Source: a virus (lineage: Duplodnaviria; Heunggongvirae; Uroviricota; Caudoviricetes). Taken from it: DNA of 38,703 nucleotides. The notes beneath the pieces were generated by a model. It saw only the letters and a list, made by a program, of their open reading frames with translations, was not told the origin of the DNA and did no database searches. The stretch lies in IMG/VR virus record IMGVR_UViG_2724679538_000007, positions 1 to 38,703 of that record. One strand, written 5' to 3'. Shown here piece after piece: positions 1-37,775 of the stretch (within the stretch, counting starts at the first letter, position 1; each line of letters starts with the position of its first letter). The translations under genes were made by a program, and so were the position numbers.

Positions 1-1071
1 TTATTTGATTTCAATTTTGTCCCACTCCCTGCCTCTGTCATCACGATACTGTGATGCCATGGTGTCCGACTTATGCCCGAGAAGATGTTGAGCAAATTTA
101 TCGCTTATCTGCTTCTCATAGAGTCTTGCAGACAAACTGCGCAACTCGTGAAAGGTAGGCGGATCCCCTTCGAAGGAAAGACCTGATGCTTTTCGTGCGC
201 GCATAAAATACCTTGATACTGTGCCGGATGAAAGCGGTTCACGACGAGTAGATGCAATTATGGTTTCTCCGCCAAGAATCTCTTTGCATTTATCAAGTGT
301 TTCCTTCATTGATATCCCGAGGGCATCAACATGCAATGCTGTTGGGATGGCAATTTTTACGCCTGTTTTGCTTTGCTCGACATAAAGATATCCATCTACG
401 ATATCAGACCACTTCATTTCGCATAAATCACCAACTCGCTGCCCGGTAACAACAGCCAGTTCCATTGCAAGTCTGAGCCAACATGGTGATGATTCTGCTG
501 CTTGATAAATTTTCAGGTATTCGTCAGCCGTAAGTCTTGATCTCCTTACCTCTGATTTTGCTGCGCGAGTGGCAGCGACCGGGTTTGTTGTTATATGGCC
601 TTCAGCTATTGCCTCTCGGAATGCATCGCTCAGTGTTGATCTGATTAACTTGGCTGACGCCGCCTTGCCCTCGTCTATGTATCCATTGAGCATTGCCGCA
701 ATTTCTTTTGTGGTGATGTTTTCAAGTGGAGCATCAGGCAGACCCCTCCTTATTGCTTTAATTTTGCTCATGTAATTTATGAGTGTCTTCTGCTTGATTC
801 CTCTGCTGGCGAGGATTTTTTCGTAGCGATCAAGCCATGAATGTAACGTAACAGAATTATCACTGTTGATTCTTGCTGTCAGAGGCTTGTGTTTGTGTCC
901 TGAAAATAACTCAATGTTGGCCTGTATAGCTTCAGTGATTGCTATCCTCCTGTCTCGGCCTAATCCAAACTCTTTACCCGTCCTTGGGTCCCTGTAGCAG
1001 TAATATCCATTGTTTCTTATATAAAGGTTAGGGGGTAAATCCCGGCGCTCATGACTTCGCCTTCTTCCCAT
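1..1071 (-). CDS. int: Tyrosine integrase, lambda Int type (356 aa)
   Basis: Translation matches phage lambda Int over its full length as I recall it (MGRRRSHERRDLPPNLYIRNNGYYCYRDPRTGKEFGLG ... HELRSLSARLYEKQ ... GHKSDTMASQYRDD). Confidence 0.97.
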   Translation of the reverse strand: MGRRRSHERRDLPPNLYIRNNGYYCYRDPRTGKEFGLGRDRRIAITEAIQANIELFSGHKHKPLTARINSDNSVTLHSWLDRYEKILASRGIKQKTLINYMSKIKAIRRGLPDAPLENITTKEIAAMLNGYIDEGKAASAKLIRSTLSDAFREAIAEGHITTNPVAATRAAKSEVRRSRLTADEYLKIYQAAESSPCWLRLAMELAVVTGQRVGDLCEMKWSDIVDGYLYVEQSKTGVKIAIPTALHVDALGISMKETLDKCKEILGGETIIASTRREPLSSGTVSRYFMRARKASGLSFEGDPPTFHELRSLSARLYEKQISDKFAQHLLGHKSDTMASQYRDDRGREWDKIEIK

Positions 1072-5679: not shown

Positions 5680-6042
5680 TTATTTTGTCAGGGGGATATC
5701 TCCTTCAGTTCTGACCATTCGCCTTAATACTTTCCTTAAGTCGATGTAAAGTTGAAGGTCTCCATTTGCTGCGGCATCAGCCATTTTTTGCCTGACAAGC
5801 AGTAATGTTTCATACGGCTCAATAAGAATATCGTCATGAGTAATTAGGTGAAGCGTTGCCGCATCAACTATTCCTAGAGCTGCGCCAAGTATCAAAAATT
5901 CCCTGCTATTTTTGTCGCATGAGGAGATAAGCGTATTTAGCGCATACCTAATATTCTTTATAGCTGTTGTTAATGCTGCAATTTCTTCTATGGCGTCCTC
6001 TTCAATGAGCTTTTTAAGCTCATATTTTTCTTCCTGACCCAT
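5680..6042 (-). CDS. Hypothetical protein (120 aa), first gene downstream of N
   Basis: ATG at 6042 with GAGGT RBS, 2 nt after the N stop; the track ORF (148 aa) would overlap N. Confidence 0.55.
   Translation of the reverse strand: MGQEEKYELKKLIEEDAIEEIAALTTAIKNIRYALNTLISSCDKNSREFLILGAALGIVDAATLHLITHDDILIEPYETLLLVRQKMADAAANGDLQLYIDLRKVLRRMVRTEGDIPLTK
5684..5712 (-). terminator. Hairpin plus U-rich stretch after the first gene downstream of N (tL1-like)
   Basis: Minus strand reads CCCCCT-GACAAAATA-AGGGGG followed by TGAGAGGATTTTACTATTTT. Confidence 0.4.
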
Positions 6043-6044
6043 AA

Positions 6045-6317
6045 TTACCTCGCCGTCAATTGTTTTGATTTCCGGTAGCCTGCCGCGTAAACGGCTACGT
6101 TTGGCAGGCAAATACTTCCACTGCATTCATCTGCCTTCTTGTAGCGAAGGCTTCCGAGTGATGCTGCTTTATCTGCTCTGACGCAACCAGAGAGCTTTAG
6201 CGCAATTTTTCGCGCCAGTCGCTGCTCTTGCATTGCCTGTTCACGTTGAGCCTGTCTGCGTGCTCTGCGGCGATTTCTGGCGTTATCGTCAGCCAGATAT
6301 GTAATGACTACTGTCAT
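6045..6317 (-). CDS. N-type transcription antiterminator (P22 gp24-like, 90 aa)
   Basis: N-terminal arginine-rich motif NARNRRRARRQAQREQ; C-terminus LPNVAVYAAGYRKSKQLTAR resembles P22 gp24; GGAGG RBS; nutL just upstream. Confidence 0.85.
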   Translation of the reverse strand: MTVVITYLADDNARNRRRARRQAQREQAMQEQRLARKIALKLSGCVRADKAASLGSLRYKKADECSGSICLPNVAVYAAGYRKSKQLTAR

Positions 6318-6511: not shown

Positions 6512-6598
6512 AGAATACTGTAGGTATTTTATTGTGTAAATACCCAAGGTATTTATTTTTGATGAAATAATGATAAGCAAATGAATACAAAGGATATT
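6512..6598 (-). promoter_or_regulatory. PL promoter with OL operator repeats
   Basis: Three 15-bp near-palindromes, AATACTGTAGGTATT (6514-6528), AATACCCAAGGTATT (6539-6553), AATACAAAGGATATT (6584-6598); minus-strand -35 TTTACA and -10 TATTCT separated by 17 nt and overlapped by the first two sites. Confidence 0.55.
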
Positions 6599-6684
6599 TA
6601 TTTTTTCGGTGTCTGCTTGTTCAGTGCTTTTTATGCGGGATATGTGAAGTGGATCCCGATAGCTATTGCTGCCGGGATTATAGG

Positions 6685-7053
6685 TTAGTCAGCGAAGGTT
6701 AAGACGAGAATTACCTTAATGATGTCTGCTACAACAGACACGGCCATAGATAAACCAAAGACGATCCAAGCCACAGTGATGTCTTCACTACCATCGTATA
6801 GAGTTCCGTAATCACTGGTGTAAGGCGTAAATGTCGCGCCTTGATACAATAGGTATAAGCTTGATCCATAGAGGATAAATGCAGATATCCCTTGTATTGC
6901 TATGATCACCAGAATCATGAAACGAGCTGATCTATGCGCCCAAGCCTGGCTTATTTTTTCTGATAGAGATTTCGCAATAAAAGCATGCGCTAAGCCGTAA
7001 ATTGTCGAGATTGCCAACATCCCAAAAAAGCTTGCTATAGCGGTTCCAACCAT
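6685..7053 (-). CDS. Small polytopic membrane protein (122 aa) co-transcribed with cI; candidate exclusion/abortive-infection factor
   Basis: ATG 18 nt after the cI stop with AAGGGGG RBS; three hydrophobic helices predicted by eye; occupies the rexA/rexB position. Confidence 0.6.
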   Translation of the reverse strand: MVGTAIASFFGMLAISTIYGLAHAFIAKSLSEKISQAWAHRSARFMILVIIAIQGISAFILYGSSLYLLYQGATFTPYTSDYGTLYDGSEDITVAWIVFGLSMAVSVVADIIKVILVLTFAD

Positions 7054-7071
7054 AAGCGCCCCCTTGCGTGA

Positions 7072-7788
7072 TCAAACCAGTCTGAGTTTTGTCTCAATTG
7101 CAACGCCTATAATCTTGCAGTTTCCATTGATTGGCACGAGAGGCCATGCAGGATTAAGTCCCTTGAGGTATTTATTTCCGCCGTCGATTATCAGCTTCTT
7201 GAATGTTGCTTCGTTAGAGTCAGAAAGTTTTGCTATGACCAAGCTGCCGTTGATCGCCTCCCTTCCGGTATCGAAAAGAACGAATGTTCCCTCTGGAATG
7301 CTTAACCCAACCGGTGCCGTCATTGAATCACCTTCCACTTTAAGCCAGAACGCATTACCTTGAATATGCGCGTCAGACTCAAGCCAAACATCTATGTCTT
7401 TAATGGTGTATGGTTCGCATGCTTCACACCACGAGCCAGCCTGGATACTGCTTAACACCGGATACCTCTTTCCTGCTCTGTATTCCCCTGCATACCTTAC
7501 GTTGGCATCGCTCTTAAGGCTTTCTGCCTGTTCTGCAACCTTGGCAGCAATTGACTGGCTAAAATCAGCAATTGAGACTTGCAACAATCGTGCAAAACCA
7601 GATGCAACCTCAACGTTTAGCGCATTTCTGCCATTAAGATAATGCCCTACCGCTCCTTGGGTGATACCCAGTTCATCAGCGATTGAGTATTGGGTTATTC
7701 CCAATTCTTTCTTTTTTGACTCATACAAAGCCTTAAGCCGCTTAGCGTCTTCCAGCTGTTCTGTCGTCAGTGATTTTTTATTTTCCAT
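7072..7788 (-). CDS. cI: CI-type prophage repressor (HTH N-domain plus LexA/S24-like autocleavage C-domain, 238 aa)
   Basis: LTTEQLEDAKRLKALYESKKKELGITQ and FWLKVEGDSMTAP ... FKKLI ... LNP parallel lambda CI ([47 protein letters not shown]). Confidence 0.93.
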   Translation of the reverse strand: MENKKSLTTEQLEDAKRLKALYESKKKELGITQYSIADELGITQGAVGHYLNGRNALNVEVASGFARLLQVSIADFSQSIAAKVAEQAESLKSDANVRYAGEYRAGKRYPVLSSIQAGSWCEACEPYTIKDIDVWLESDAHIQGNAFWLKVEGDSMTAPVGLSIPEGTFVLFDTGREAINGSLVIAKLSDSNEATFKKLIIDGGNKYLKGLNPAWPLVPINGNCKIIGVAIETKLRLV

Positions 7789-7823
7789 AGCTTAATTCTA
7801 ATAGCTAAGGTACTTAAACTAAA

Positions 7824-7865
7824 AATACCCTAAGTATTGATTGCTTTGAATACCTGTAGTATTCT
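7824..7865 (+). promoter_or_regulatory. OR operators and PR promoter
   Basis: AATACCCTAAGTATT (7824-7838) and AATACCTGTAGTATT (7849-7863) share the OL consensus; candidate PR -35 TTGATT (7837-7842) and -10 TATTCT (7860-7865) with 17-bp spacer. Confidence 0.5.
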
Positions 7866-31767: not shown

Positions 31768-32253
31768 CTACCTGATATTACTGCTACTGTTGCATGTTAC
31801 CGTGTTTCCAAATCCTGAATTGCAGTTTGTATATGTGTCAACGCGTGTTGGGTAAGGTTGAGTTATAACAGGCTGGCGCGCTTTTTGCTCGATCGCTTGC
31901 ATTGTGTTTACAGCCTGATAATTCAATAAAGCCTGCTGGAATGCTTGGCTTTGTGCTATTTGTTGGGCTTGTTCTTGGCTTTGTAATTGAACATAAAGAT
32001 TCTGAAGCTCAAGTCTTGCCTGTGCGTCACTTATCTTGCCTTCATCGACACCTTGCCCGAGCATCTTTGCAGCAAGGACATACAGCTTAGGTGTTGGTGC
32101 TGATGCCATGCGTGAGTCGTTCTTCACACTGGCATCAAGGCAATTAGCCATATCGCTAAGCTTTTGATAGCGTTGTTCGCAACTTGCTTGATAGTCACTT
32201 ACTTTTGCGCATCCAACCAGAAGAAGCGGGATAATTAACAGTGATTTTTTCAT
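31768..32253 (-). CDS. Lipoprotein (161 aa), antisense to the late operon; candidate superinfection-exclusion factor
   Basis: Signal peptide plus lipobox MKKSLLIIPLLLVGC; AAGGAG RBS; occupies the P22 sieA/immI position between gene 16 and the tailspike. Confidence 0.7.
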   Translation of the reverse strand: MKKSLLIIPLLLVGCAKVSDYQASCEQRYQKLSDMANCLDASVKNDSRMASAPTPKLYVLAAKMLGQGVDEGKISDAQARLELQNLYVQLQSQEQAQQIAQSQAFQQALLNYQAVNTMQAIEQKARQPVITQPYPTRVDTYTNCNSGFGNTVTCNSSSNIR

Positions 32254-35050: not shown

Positions 35051-36499
35051 CTATCGACATTTGTTGAAGTCAAATATCATTGTGTCATTATGAATAAGTG
35101 TGGTGTAGATACTATTACTTCTGTATGGTTTTTTGCACGATGATGCCAATGCAGATGGTAAGTTTATCTTAGAATCATAATCTACTTTTATTCCCATGCT
35201 GTTAAAAATAAATGCCCCAAACATCCAGTCTGATCTGATATATGATGGAGTAATCATGCCAATGATTCCGATTTTTTCATTAGCGTTTTGTACTGGTTGA
35301 GGAAATGAAGTTAACCCATTAAATCTTATTTTAGTTATATTTTGGCTTGATGTTATGTCCTTAGCCATAGAATAAAATAAAAATTCCTCTTTGCTCTTCT
35401 GTGCTTGTAAGGAATTCCCATACATGTAACTAACAATAAAGCACGAGAAAATTAAAGGGATAGGTGTGAAAAACGTCCATCTATTGGCGCTTGAAGATAT
35501 AATATAAACTGAAAAAAACATGAGACCAGAAAATCCTACTAATACCCTGGGATATACAACAGGTTCATCTAGAATAAAAAGAACGCCAATAACAGATAAT
35601 AATACGCCAAATATGCATATTAATGTAGCTATTGTCGTGTTAATTGTTTTTCTTTGAAATGCATTTGTGAATGACATTGCTATTGCTATTGATAATGTTA
35701 TAGCAAATATACCCCCCAGAAATCCCGAAAGAGCCTTTAATATCATACTTGTGTAAATTTTGTAATTTTCTGATACATTAAATGCAAGACCTTTTACATT
35801 TAATGCTAATTGAGCATGGTTTGTGCTATATGCGCCAGAAACATAAATGCTAGCAATTAGTAGTTTATAAATAATAAGTGCGGCAGTTAATGCCAGTATA
35901 TATACTGAAATATTCTTAAGAAGTGTTGTTATATTATCTGTTGATTTTAAAATAATACAATTCAAACAAGTGAGAGCAATAAATATGTTTACTGATGATT
36001 GATACAGGCTTAAAGTAAAAACCAACAGAATGATCGATGTCGCGAAATTTATAAAACTTTTGTTTTTTAAAAGAAGTGCGGCGGACACAACAGATAATGA
36101 CACAGAGAGTGACATTGTAAATACGTCAAATTTGTAAGACAAATTTTGAAGATAAAAAGGTGATACAATCAAAGATAGTGAAATTAATACTACCCTAAAT
36201 TTTCCTTCGAGTTTGGTTATGAAACAATAATAATAACAAGAGGTTATCATTGTTAACATTGATAGCAAAAGAGGCATTGGTGATATGTTGATAACCTTAC
36301 CACCAAATGACATACCTTTAATTATCCATTCTGCAAGCGGTCTACCATTGTCTGCCCATCTTGCATATCCAGCAATATTTCTTGATATGTCGTCAATGTA
36401 GAAAACATTGCCAATAATCAATGGTAATGAGTATAGAATAGCAAGTGTAATGGCATAGGTATATCCATTACGTTTTAAATACATTATAAATGAGTTCAT
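35051..36499 (-). CDS. Serotype-specific O-antigen glucosyltransferase, GtrC-type polytopic membrane protein (482 aa)
   Basis: Third gene of a gtrA-gtrB-X operon; many predicted TM helices; strongly AT-rich relative to the rest of the prophage; GtrC-type proteins are typically this divergent. Confidence 0.7.
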
Positions 36500-37416
36500 T
36501 GTGTTTTACCTTTTATTATATAACGAGGTCTCATCTTTGTTTCTGTGTAAATTCTTCCAATGTATTCACCTAGCACACCAATACCTATCAATTGGACGCC
36601 GCCAAGGAACAGAATAGACACGAGCAATGAAGGATAACCACGAACAGGGTTTCCAAACACCAGTGTGTCAAGAATCATCAACGCACCGTAAATAAATGCC
36701 ATACTGGCAACAAAAAGCCCGATATAAGTCCACATGCGTAGTGGGAATGTTGAGAAACTTGTTATTCCCTCAAGGGCTAAATTCCACAACTTCCATCCGT
36801 TAAATTTCGTGCTCCCTGCTACACGTTCGGCGCGAACATATTCTACAACATCAGTCTTTCCGCCAACCCAACTCAGTATACCCTTCATGAATAGGTTGCG
36901 TTCTTGCATGAGCTTAATATTTTCTACAACTTCACGGCTCATTAACCGGAAATCACCAACATTTTCCTCAATCTTTGGATTACTTATTTTGTTGTGTAGC
37001 TTATAGAACCACTCAGCAGTTTTGCGCTTCAGACGACCATCAGTAGATCGATCTGATCGTTTGGCAAGAACCATATCAGCGCCTGCCTGCCACTTTTCTA
37101 TAAGATGAGGAATAACCTCAATCGGGTCTTGCAGGTCAACATCAATTGGAATCACGGCATCGCCAGTTGCATGGTCTAACCCTGCAAACAATGCTGGTTC
37201 TTTACCAAAGTTGCGTGTAAATGACAGCGGAACAACTAGCGGATCAGAAACAGCCAGAGCGTTAATGATTGACTCCGTAGCGTCTTTGCTTCCGTCATTT
37301 ATGAAAACAATTTCTACTTCATATGACTTCAACTCTTCGAATTCACGTACCGTTTTATAGAAAATTGGTATCGCTTCTTCTTCATTGAAGACAGGAACGA
37401 CCAGAGATATCTTCAT
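36496..37416 (-). CDS. gtrB: Bactoprenol glucosyltransferase GtrB (GT2 family, 306 aa)
   Basis: [19 protein letters not shown] ... INDGSKD ... two C-terminal TM helices; typical GtrB organisation. Confidence 0.92.
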
Positions 37417-37775
37417 TTCGCATCCCTAAAGACAATGAACTTTGAATAGACGAAACCGCACACCAGGCTGATGGCGGAGAAAGTGATAAGGGTGACCATC
37501 GGGGGAAGTGCGCATCTATCAGCAGCCCACCCGACGACAACACTCAAGGTTCCCATGAATCCCACGTATAACAAGTAACGCATCGTTGTAGTCGATGCTT
37601 TGAATGTGAATCTTGCATTCGCGAAGAAGCTAAAGCTCACAGCTACTATGAAACCTGCGAAGTTTGCCATAGCTTGATTTGTATGCGCTGCATAGATACA
37701 TACACCAAAAACCACCCAGTGTATAAGTGTGTTCAGCACACCAATTGAGGTGTACTTTGCAAATAGCTTTAACAT
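37413..37775 (-). CDS. gtrA: GtrA-type flippase (small four-TM protein, 120 aa)
   Basis: Size, hydrophobicity and position as the first gene of the gtr operon, overlapping the gtrB start. Confidence 0.88.

Follow-up and report, generated by a model that had tools for sequence, protein, structure and literature searches.

hkaS, the gene behind the cI repressor of HK620-type phages, encodes an orphan membrane protein that may act against superinfecting phages

Results

hkaS follows cI in the repressor operon

We analysed a 38,703-nucleotide stretch of viral DNA, the IMG/VR record IMGVR_UViG_2724679538_000007 at its full length (hereafter the window), which is a P22-like phage genome, and focused on the small gene directly behind the cI repressor gene in its immunity region. 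This gene is hkaS of phage HK620, in whose record the product is listed as 'unknown', and the encoded protein is 99.2% identical to HkaS of HK620. We find that HkaS is an accessory membrane protein of the repressor operon and belongs to an orphan family, and by analogy with other genes found in this position we consider protection against superinfecting phages to be its most likely role, with slightly better than even confidence. The initial annotation of the window, made from the sequence alone, had presented the gene as uncharacterised. This stands for the function, on which we found no paper, but not for the open reading frame (ORF), which has long been catalogued as hkaS in the HK620 record and is hence not new.

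The hkaS coding sequence occupies positions 6685-7053 on the minus strand (ATG at 7053-7051, stop codon at 6687-6685) and comprises 122 codons. The cI stop codon TGA lies at 7074-7072, exactly 18 nucleotides (nt) ahead of the hkaS ATG, and the spacer (7054-7071, minus strand) contains the Shine-Dalgarno sequence AAGGGGG (7059-7065, minus strand), which ends 5 nt before the start codon. On the minus strand the junction reads TGA-TCACGC-AAGGGGG-CGCTT-ATG, which bears out the earlier claim that the gene starts 18 nt past the cI stop codon, on the same strand and with a strong ribosome-binding site. Both genes share one reading frame with the cI stop codon between them, and nothing resembling a promoter or terminator was picked up at the junction by a consensus scan. 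A Shine-Dalgarno sequence (AAGGA or AGGGA) is present at the matching place in every diverged hkaS homolog, though the spacers differ. Judged by this retained signal, by the family match and constant length of the protein, and by the substitution pattern and intact loci described below, the hkaS ORF is more than a chance frame.

The first gene of the operon, cI (7072-7788, minus strand), encodes a 238-amino acid (aa) repressor with HTH_3 and Peptidase_S24 domains according to Pfam, in agreement with the HK620 cI annotation; the protein is 40% identical overall to c2 of P22. Next to the start of cI, at 7795-7864, lie the operators OR1-OR3, which are of the AATAC-N5-GTATT type and match the positions of OR1-3 and pR in HK620, together with the putative promoter PRM, which was placed by analogy with lambda. 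A candidate -10 element, TAGAAT, is found at 7800-7795 and ends 6 nt ahead of the cI ATG. As in lambda, the cI message probably has little or no leader and, if this is right, the strong Shine-Dalgarno sequence of hkaS raises the possibility that hkaS is translated better than cI.

In the HK620 record the neighbours of hkaS are cI at one end and tIMM, OL3-OL1 and pL at the other. A stem-loop that lacks a U-tract starts 7 nt past the hkaS stop codon in the window (6653-6678, minus strand; RNA folding, z = -2.3) and probably marks the 3' end of the cI-hkaS transcript or stabilises it; tIMM of the HK620 record is set slightly further downstream of hkaS and overlaps OL3. Hairpins of unrelated sequence occur at the equivalent place in diverged homologs, and in the uncultured Buttiauxella contig L050 hkaS is followed by a canonical intrinsic terminator (CCCGGA-loop-TCCGGG and then TTTTTT). 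The operators OL1-OL3 and the promoter PL (6512-6600, minus strand), assigned by promoter scan and from the HK620 annotation, close the immunity block that encloses hkaS. PL (TTTACA-17-TATTCT, 6540-6512) was the sole leftward promoter-like site that the consensus scan returned nearby. At diverged loci the operators are invariant, and the 90 nt after hkaS are not conserved. cI and hkaS are the only genes of the immunity block, with no further ORF there, and hkaS has the layout of a repressor-operon accessory gene, like rexAB, hex, stk and bstA, being located on the cI strand, immediately downstream of cI and with the transcript end before OL. With pRE annotated in the HK620 record, we infer that PRM drives hkaS in the lysogen and that PRE does so at establishment. 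A search for a transcriptome or proteome of a lysogen with HK620 immunity found none. A second promoter inside cI, comparable to PLIT of lambda, was also considered and rejected, as the consensus scan, which is a crude one, found none.

HkaS is a predicted three-helix membrane protein without detectable relatives beyond a narrow family

HkaS is 99-100% identical in HK620, mEpX2, HK630 and other phages, and the block of 1.5 kb that runs from N to cI shares 98.5-99.3% identity with that of mEpX2, HK620, HK630, HK140, HZ41, HF4s and vB_EcoP_phi296/phi367. The block also matches 611R6 and two Stx2c-converting phages, there with an insertion downstream of nutL, and in HF4s the hkaS alignment is broken. 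The exact protein is present on at least 1000 contigs, and every database name given to it is 'hypothetical' or 'uncharacterized'. It matches phrog_6534, a family of 'unknown function', over its full length (E 2.4e-79, residues 1-122 on profile positions 1-122). Twelve clusters came back from a word-indexed search of 5.8 billion proteins, and an exhaustive hidden Markov model search of 1.84 billion representative proteins recovered just its own cluster and one 44-aa fragment. Members of the family come from prophages of E. coli, Salmonella, Enterobacter, Hafnia and Buttiauxella and have a uniform length of 122 aa, and homologs with identities down to 52% share 43 invariant positions.

Searches of Pfam (none above threshold), NCBIfam and the annotated PHROGs gave no family match for HkaS. 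The Pfam families Cation_ATPase_C (E 0.0035, 17.6 bits against a cut-off of 27.3) and TssN (E 0.071) were discarded as sub-threshold matches to hydrophobic helices. No family of PADLOC-DB 2.0 matched at E <= 1; this 2023 library comprises 5027 defence-protein models, with later systems outside its coverage. We found nothing on the function of hkaS in the literature on hkaS, HK620 exclusion, mEpX2/HK140/HK630, WP_000233126 and AAK28867 or in the DefensePredictor supplements.

The initial annotation had anticipated a 122-aa protein with about three hydrophobic helices, and the ORF, its hydropathy and an AlphaFold2 (AF2) model all agree with this. The hydropathy profile (Kyte-Doolittle, 19-residue window) has three peaks above 1.6, and the AF2 model, built from a seven-sequence alignment (pLDDT 92, pTM 0.79), contains helices at residues 2-29, 31-38, 41-73 and 89-121 and a small hairpin at 78-86. 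The 17-residue loop 28-44 has four K/R, whereas the 22-residue loop 71-92 has no K/R and four D/E, and by the positive-inside rule HkaS is predicted to span the membrane with three transmembrane (TM) helices in an N-out/C-in orientation. Invariant residues line one face of TM1 (G3, S8, G11, I15 and Y19) and one face of TM3 (W96, F99, S106, D110 and K113), and Q54 in TM2 is invariant as well. The buried Asp and Lys, one turn apart, and a small-residue face of TM1, G3-(A/G)7-G11, suggest helix packing, oligomerisation or a polar path. The model had no specific match among solved or predicted viral structures, and HkaS is without a detectable sequence or fold relative beyond its narrow family.

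hkaS tracks the C-terminal domain of cI across unrelated phages

Among 5426 complete E. coli genomes, hkaS was found in 146 (147 places; about 2.7%), and the counts for cI were identical (146 genomes, 147 places). The carriers are diverse E. coli from humans, animals and the environment and include Shiga toxin-producing E. coli (STEC) lineages. At the level of phages, hkaS is carried by a Lederbergvirus podovirus, by Hendrixvirinae siphoviruses, by the 47-kb HK630, which we take to be a lambda-like phage, and by Stx2c-converting phages, as well as by 57-59-kb 'vB_EcoP' phages isolated on an enterohaemorrhagic E. coli (EHEC) strain. Since podoviruses, siphoviruses and Stx phages all carry it, the cI-hkaS module is independent of virion type, which argues that the role of hkaS is not tied to the virion of its carrier.

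Every locus examined, whether from Salmonella, of Hafnia type, from a metagenome, from Buttiauxella or from IMG/VR, has hkaS immediately behind a cI C-terminal domain of the HK620 type. This linkage is in part a matter of architecture, because hkaS is located between cI and OL, in a block whose two operator sets must match the repressor. The contig L050 (2507-3543, plus strand) is informative here. It encodes an HkaS that is 56% identical, 20 nt after a hybrid repressor whose N-terminal DNA-binding domain is P22 c2-like, with P22-like operators downstream, and whose C-terminal domain, from about residue 104, is highly similar to that of the window cI (60% identity over the whole alignment). 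The hybrid clearly reflects recombination inside the repressor gene, between its two domains. The linkage of hkaS thus exceeds immunity specificity, and hkaS tracks the cI C-terminal domain in every case found. At least four protein alleles of HkaS occur together with one and the same cI protein (WP_000428318).

hkaS is under purifying selection that is weaker than that on cI

For hkaS the ratio of non-synonymous to synonymous substitution rates (dN/dS) was 0.13-0.22 in pairs with unsaturated dS, and mean dN over mean dS was 0.23 among E. coli alleles; the corresponding values for cI were 0.03 and 0.02 at equal dS. To compare segregating sites we used 80 IMG/VR contigs, the closest 80 of 113 and therefore a sample biased to close relatives. 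hkaS had 17 synonymous and 23 non-synonymous sites in these contigs and 24 protein alleles, whereas cI had 33 synonymous and 5 non-synonymous sites and 6 protein alleles (Fisher p = 5e-5), which corresponds to about 9 times more amino-acid polymorphism in hkaS. hkaS was intact in 80/80 contigs, with an intact cI directly upstream in 79/79 for which the sequence was available. The substitutions in HkaS are conservative (I/V, I/L, T/S, V/M, F/L) and fall mostly within TM segments. hkaS is clearly under purifying selection, with constraint far weaker than that on cI, and with dN/dS well below 1 and conservative substitutions we saw no sign of positive selection on the gene. Damage to both genes was seen in E. 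coli ET151 (locus L021, 1201-2301), where cI is annotated as a frameshifted pseudogene and hkaS is frameshifted and shortened to 111 aa, as expected of a decaying prophage.

The slot behind cI carries diverse genes, several of which match phage-defence models

The interval between cI and N is a mosaic hotspot that carries the abortive-infection systems RexAB and BstA (PMC8585504), and genes of PRM operons that exclude other phages include the 933W kinase and Hex (PMC3564112). rexA-rexB occupy the slot in lambda, and P22 has no gene there. We surveyed 80 loci from species-representative genomes that encode cI relatives 40-76% identical to the window cI, taking the first downstream ORF at each. 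In about two of every three loci an ORF of 45 aa or more starts within 250 nt of cI, and these ORFs are very diverse; an HkaS homolog was found in L050 alone. When 18 distinct cargo proteins were compared with the PADLOC models, 7 of them matched. RexA (E 1.7e-109; locus L026) lies beside a cI that is 76% identical to that of the window, and BstA (E 1.2e-115; 314 aa, no predicted TM helix) follows a cI that is 69% identical. The other five matches were to the PADLOC candidate defence families PDC-S42, PDC-M03A (HipA-like) and PDC-M63A, to an ImmA/CapP-like peptidase and, weakly, to an NYN protein. The slot also holds a GHKL ATPase. An MscS-like channel and a DUF1275 four-TM protein have no defence look. 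The description of this slot as the rexAB position with diverse defence cargo was thus upheld by the RexA, BstA and PDC proteins, but needs to be amended in that the cargo is fixed for the cI C-terminal domain of the window. Exclusion or abortive infection is the leading hypothesis for hkaS, but not the sole one.

Five further slot proteins of 131-372 aa had no PADLOC match (L032, 3406-4176; L036, 3277-4395; L089, 3159-3959; L027, 3416-3811; L051, 3193-3726; all on the plus strand), and those of L032 and L036 had no Pfam match either. Given their slot neighbours, all five are further candidate prophage defence genes. Small ORFs after cI with 1-3 predicted TM helices or a lipoprotein signal, unrelated to HkaS, were seen in L030 (50 aa), L062 (52 aa), L047, L068, L077, L083 and L095, and small membrane proteins seem to be recurrent cargo of repressor operons.

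Comparison of HkaS with known small membrane and repressor-operon proteins

We compared HkaS with known proteins that share its position, its architecture or both. RexB of lambda is the closest in position: like hkaS, rexB lies after cI, before tIMM/OL and on the cI strand, it encodes a small polytopic inner-membrane protein, and both proteins are presumed to be made from PRM and PRE. RexB is longer (144 aa against 122 aa) and has four TM helices rather than three, and the operon of hkaS has no gene for a RexA-like partner. The two sequences are unrelated, with an hhalign probability of 0.7% and no Pfam or PADLOC match of HkaS to RexB at E <= 1. The lack of similarity to RexB and SieB had been noted in the initial annotation and is confirmed here by Pfam, PHROG, PADLOC and hhalign.

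SieA of P22 resembles HkaS in being a single small polytopic inner-membrane prophage protein without a soluble domain, and the window phage is itself P22-like. SieA blocks DNA delivery by P22-like phages (PMC10883804). The hhalign probability between HkaS and SieA was 0.3%, for the P22 type, which is one of the three SieA types described in PMC10883804. In P22, sieA follows the ejection-protein gene 16, a place taken by an unrelated lipoprotein gene in the window, and unlike sieA, hkaS travels with cI across podoviruses and siphoviruses. SieB of P22 gave an hhalign probability of 0.1%, and sieB is located between N and cIII on the opposite strand, unlike hkaS, which lies upstream of PL on the cI strand. 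Imm of T4 and gp15 of HK97 are small membrane proteins that block genome entry and act constitutively, as proposed here for HkaS, but the genes stand in different genomic contexts. Our Pfam and PHROG scans of HkaS, in databases believed to hold models for proteins of this type, gave only phrog_6534 and sub-threshold noise; no direct comparison with Imm or gp15 was made.

Hex of phage 434 is, like HkaS, encoded by the second gene of a PRM operon with a repressor of the same broad family, and it excludes the heterologous phage P22 and stabilises the lysogen (PMC3564112). Hex is unrelated to HkaS, and its homologs are soluble proteins with a signal peptide, whereas HkaS is an integral membrane protein. 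Homologs of Hex lie directly after cI relatives in L078 (3109-3516), L079 (3133-3540) and L087 (3109-3516), all on the plus strand, and have a typical signal peptide. The published 'sHex' fragment (ECWIV...; PMC3564112) aligns to the L079 protein from residue 19, right after the predicted cleavage between AASA and QCW. On this alignment the Hex 'processing' of PMC3564112 may be signal-peptide removal and mature Hex may be periplasmic, which would be an odd fit with direct inhibition of RecA-mediated repressor cleavage in vivo.

BstA is an abortive-infection protein encoded downstream of cI in BTP1-like prophages and localises to sites of phage DNA replication (PMC8585504). It shares with HkaS the slot behind cI but has no similarity to it, and the PADLOC BstA model is matched by the BstA homolog but not by HkaS. 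The colicin immunity proteins ImmE1 and Cai are near loop-less proteins of three or four helices and of HkaS-like size that meet the pore-former inside the membrane, which offers a helpful parallel in mechanism. HkaS has no Pfam match to such proteins, has no adjacent toxin gene and stands in a repressor operon. Class I holins have three TM helices in an N-out/C-in arrangement, a layout that the HkaS prediction resembles. HkaS differs from them in that it ends in ...LTFAD straight after TM3 without a charged tail and has a single Met start, in that its gene lies in the immunity region and not in a lysis cassette, and in that it matches no holin family in PHROGs or Pfam.

Other features of the window

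A scan of the window proteins identified an integrase gene (1-1071, minus strand) and the O-antigen glucosylation operon gtrA-gtrB-gtrC (gtrABC; 35051-37775, minus strand). Through gtrABC the phage already has at least one other lysogenic-conversion function that blocks O-antigen-dependent phage adsorption. The lipoprotein gene mentioned above (31768-32253, minus strand) directly follows the homolog of ejection-protein gene 16 and encodes a Q-rich lipoprotein of 161 aa (MKKSLLIIPLLLVG|C). The protein matches phrog_6067, a family of unknown function, is found in only five phage records and is 55% identical to a 'putative lipoprotein' of a Proteus phage. Cor, Llp and Ltp are examples of exclusion or conversion factors, and by analogy this protein could be a second factor of that kind expressed in the lysogen. 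The ORF after N (5680-6126, minus strand) is homologous to hkaQ of HK620 and matches phrog_7374 (unknown function, E 3e-79). With the first ATG taken as its start, it runs into the end of N (6045-6317), and its true start is probably an internal Met at about residue 29, which fits the 120-aa profile.

Discussion

We propose that hkaS, as the second gene of the cI operon, would be transcribed from PRM in the lysogen and from PRE at establishment, with its own strong ribosome-binding site directing the synthesis of an inner-membrane protein of 122 aa. Probably as an oligomer, HkaS would act constitutively within the membrane and interfere with a membrane-embedded step of the superinfecting phage, most likely the crossing of the inner membrane by the genome or the building of the ejection or tape-measure channel through it, which would place HkaS with SieA, Imm and gp15 of HK97 among the superinfection-exclusion proteins. 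SieA and other exclusion proteins known to consist of one small inner-membrane protein prevent DNA delivery (PMC10883804), and an architecture of three helices joined by loops of 17 and 22 residues, with no soluble sensing domain, favours a passive, constitutive block over a triggered response. We offer the constitutive inner-membrane block, which rests on the position of the gene and the missing sensor domain, as a tentative reading that falls short of even odds, though we prefer it to each of the alternatives considered below.

Several observations weigh against an entry block. No homology points to an anti-phage activity, as HkaS has no match in PADLOC, Pfam, NCBIfam or the annotated PHROGs and no specific fold match, and we found no literature on it. 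SieA and HK97 gp15 are encoded near virion genes, whereas hkaS accompanies the repressor in phages with unrelated virions. Entry blockers of the P22 SieA kind are moreover specific to one injection machinery (PMC10883804). Genes in the slot can also have other roles, as Hex and RexA illustrate. Within the protein, 9 of the 17 residues of the cytoplasmic loop 28-44 are invariant (53%) but only 4 of the 22 in the periplasmic loop 71-92 (18%), and the last ten residues, the cytoplasmic KxILVLTFAD, are almost fully conserved; periplasmic contact with incoming phage parts would predict the reverse. Finally, the hkaS alleles carry no signature of diversifying selection, and their conservative, TM-located polymorphism looks like relaxed constraint and not like an arms race.

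The main alternative, though an unlikely one, is abortive infection, in which HkaS would be a latent pore or ion channel, in the manner of a RexB without RexA or of a SieB- or holin-like protein, that infection opens, so that depolarisation kills or stalls the cell before phage release. The slot equals that of lambda rexA-rexB, and a RexA homolog occupies it beside the 76%-identical cI. The invariant Q54, S106, D110 and K113 in TM2 and TM3, together with the small-residue face of TM1, would suit such a channel, as would the predicted three-TM, N-out/C-in layout, which resembles that of class I holins, and the conserved cytoplasmic loop and C-terminal tail could gate it or contact a trigger. 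However, the immunity block contains no partner gene for a sensor and HkaS no soluble domain that could detect infection, the hhalign probabilities against RexB and SieB are below 1%, and neither the charged tail nor the dual start of holins is present.

There is a slim chance that hkaS instead benefits the host by lysogenic conversion, for example by giving it immunity to a bacteriocin that forms pores or to a contact-dependent toxin, by raising its stress tolerance or by modulating one of its transporters. Near loop-less, small polytopic inner-membrane proteins of 110-180 aa are typical of immunity to pore-forming colicins, hkaS is kept in E. coli from humans, animals and the environment, and the DUF1275 protein and the MscS-like channel share the slot beside cI relatives. 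Pfam and NCBIfam nevertheless gave no match to an immunity protein or transporter, no toxin gene lies nearby, and the positional prior points to phage defence.

Slimmer still is the prospect that HkaS modulates the lysogenic switch or the stability of the prophage, tuning spontaneous or SOS induction or the establishment of lysogeny from the membrane, for which FtsH/Clp proteolysis or contact with the cI C-terminal domain might be the route. hkaS always follows the same cI C-terminal domain, even in the L050 hybrid, and the two genes have equal counts in E. coli; hkaS would be transcribed from PRE during establishment; and the cytoplasmic face of the protein is the best conserved. There are precedents in Hex, which lowers RecA-dependent induction 30-fold (PMC3564112), and in the RexA/RexB pair, where RexA binds CI and RexB has a modulating role (bioRxiv 10.1101/2021.04.19.439022). 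But the linkage is also explained by mere adjacency, with hkaS 18 nt from cI inside the OL-OR block, cI is near-invariant and found with four HkaS alleles, which gives no hint of a tight co-evolving contact, a fully membrane-embedded protein would be an unusual partner for a DNA-bound repressor, and P22, whose c2 is related (40% identical), has no gene in the slot.

A bolder reading, which we regard as improbable, is that HkaS is a stand-alone, sensor-less, three-helix and one-gene counterpart of RexAB with a fold family of its own, conferring a new, intramembrane form of broad protection against unrelated phages or coupling the cI switch to the condition of the inner membrane by way of the cI C-terminal domain that hkaS always follows. 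If true, it would make HkaS a tractable model for the many small membrane ORFs behind prophage repressors. Exclusion as such would not surprise a specialist, but hkaS is a clean candidate for it, with a wide distribution in E. coli that extends to Stx phages. Few prophage genes are expressed as strongly as those of repressor operons, and the second gene there has proved time and again to belong to a defence system, as with RexAB, the 933W kinase, Hex and BstA. hkaS is present in the culturable phages HK620, mEpX2, HK140 and HK630. If HkaS tuned induction, this would bear on the silencing of Stx prophages with this immunity region, and if it excludes phages, it would add a new family of single-protein membrane defences and affect phage susceptibility and the spread of Stx phages in the strains that carry it.

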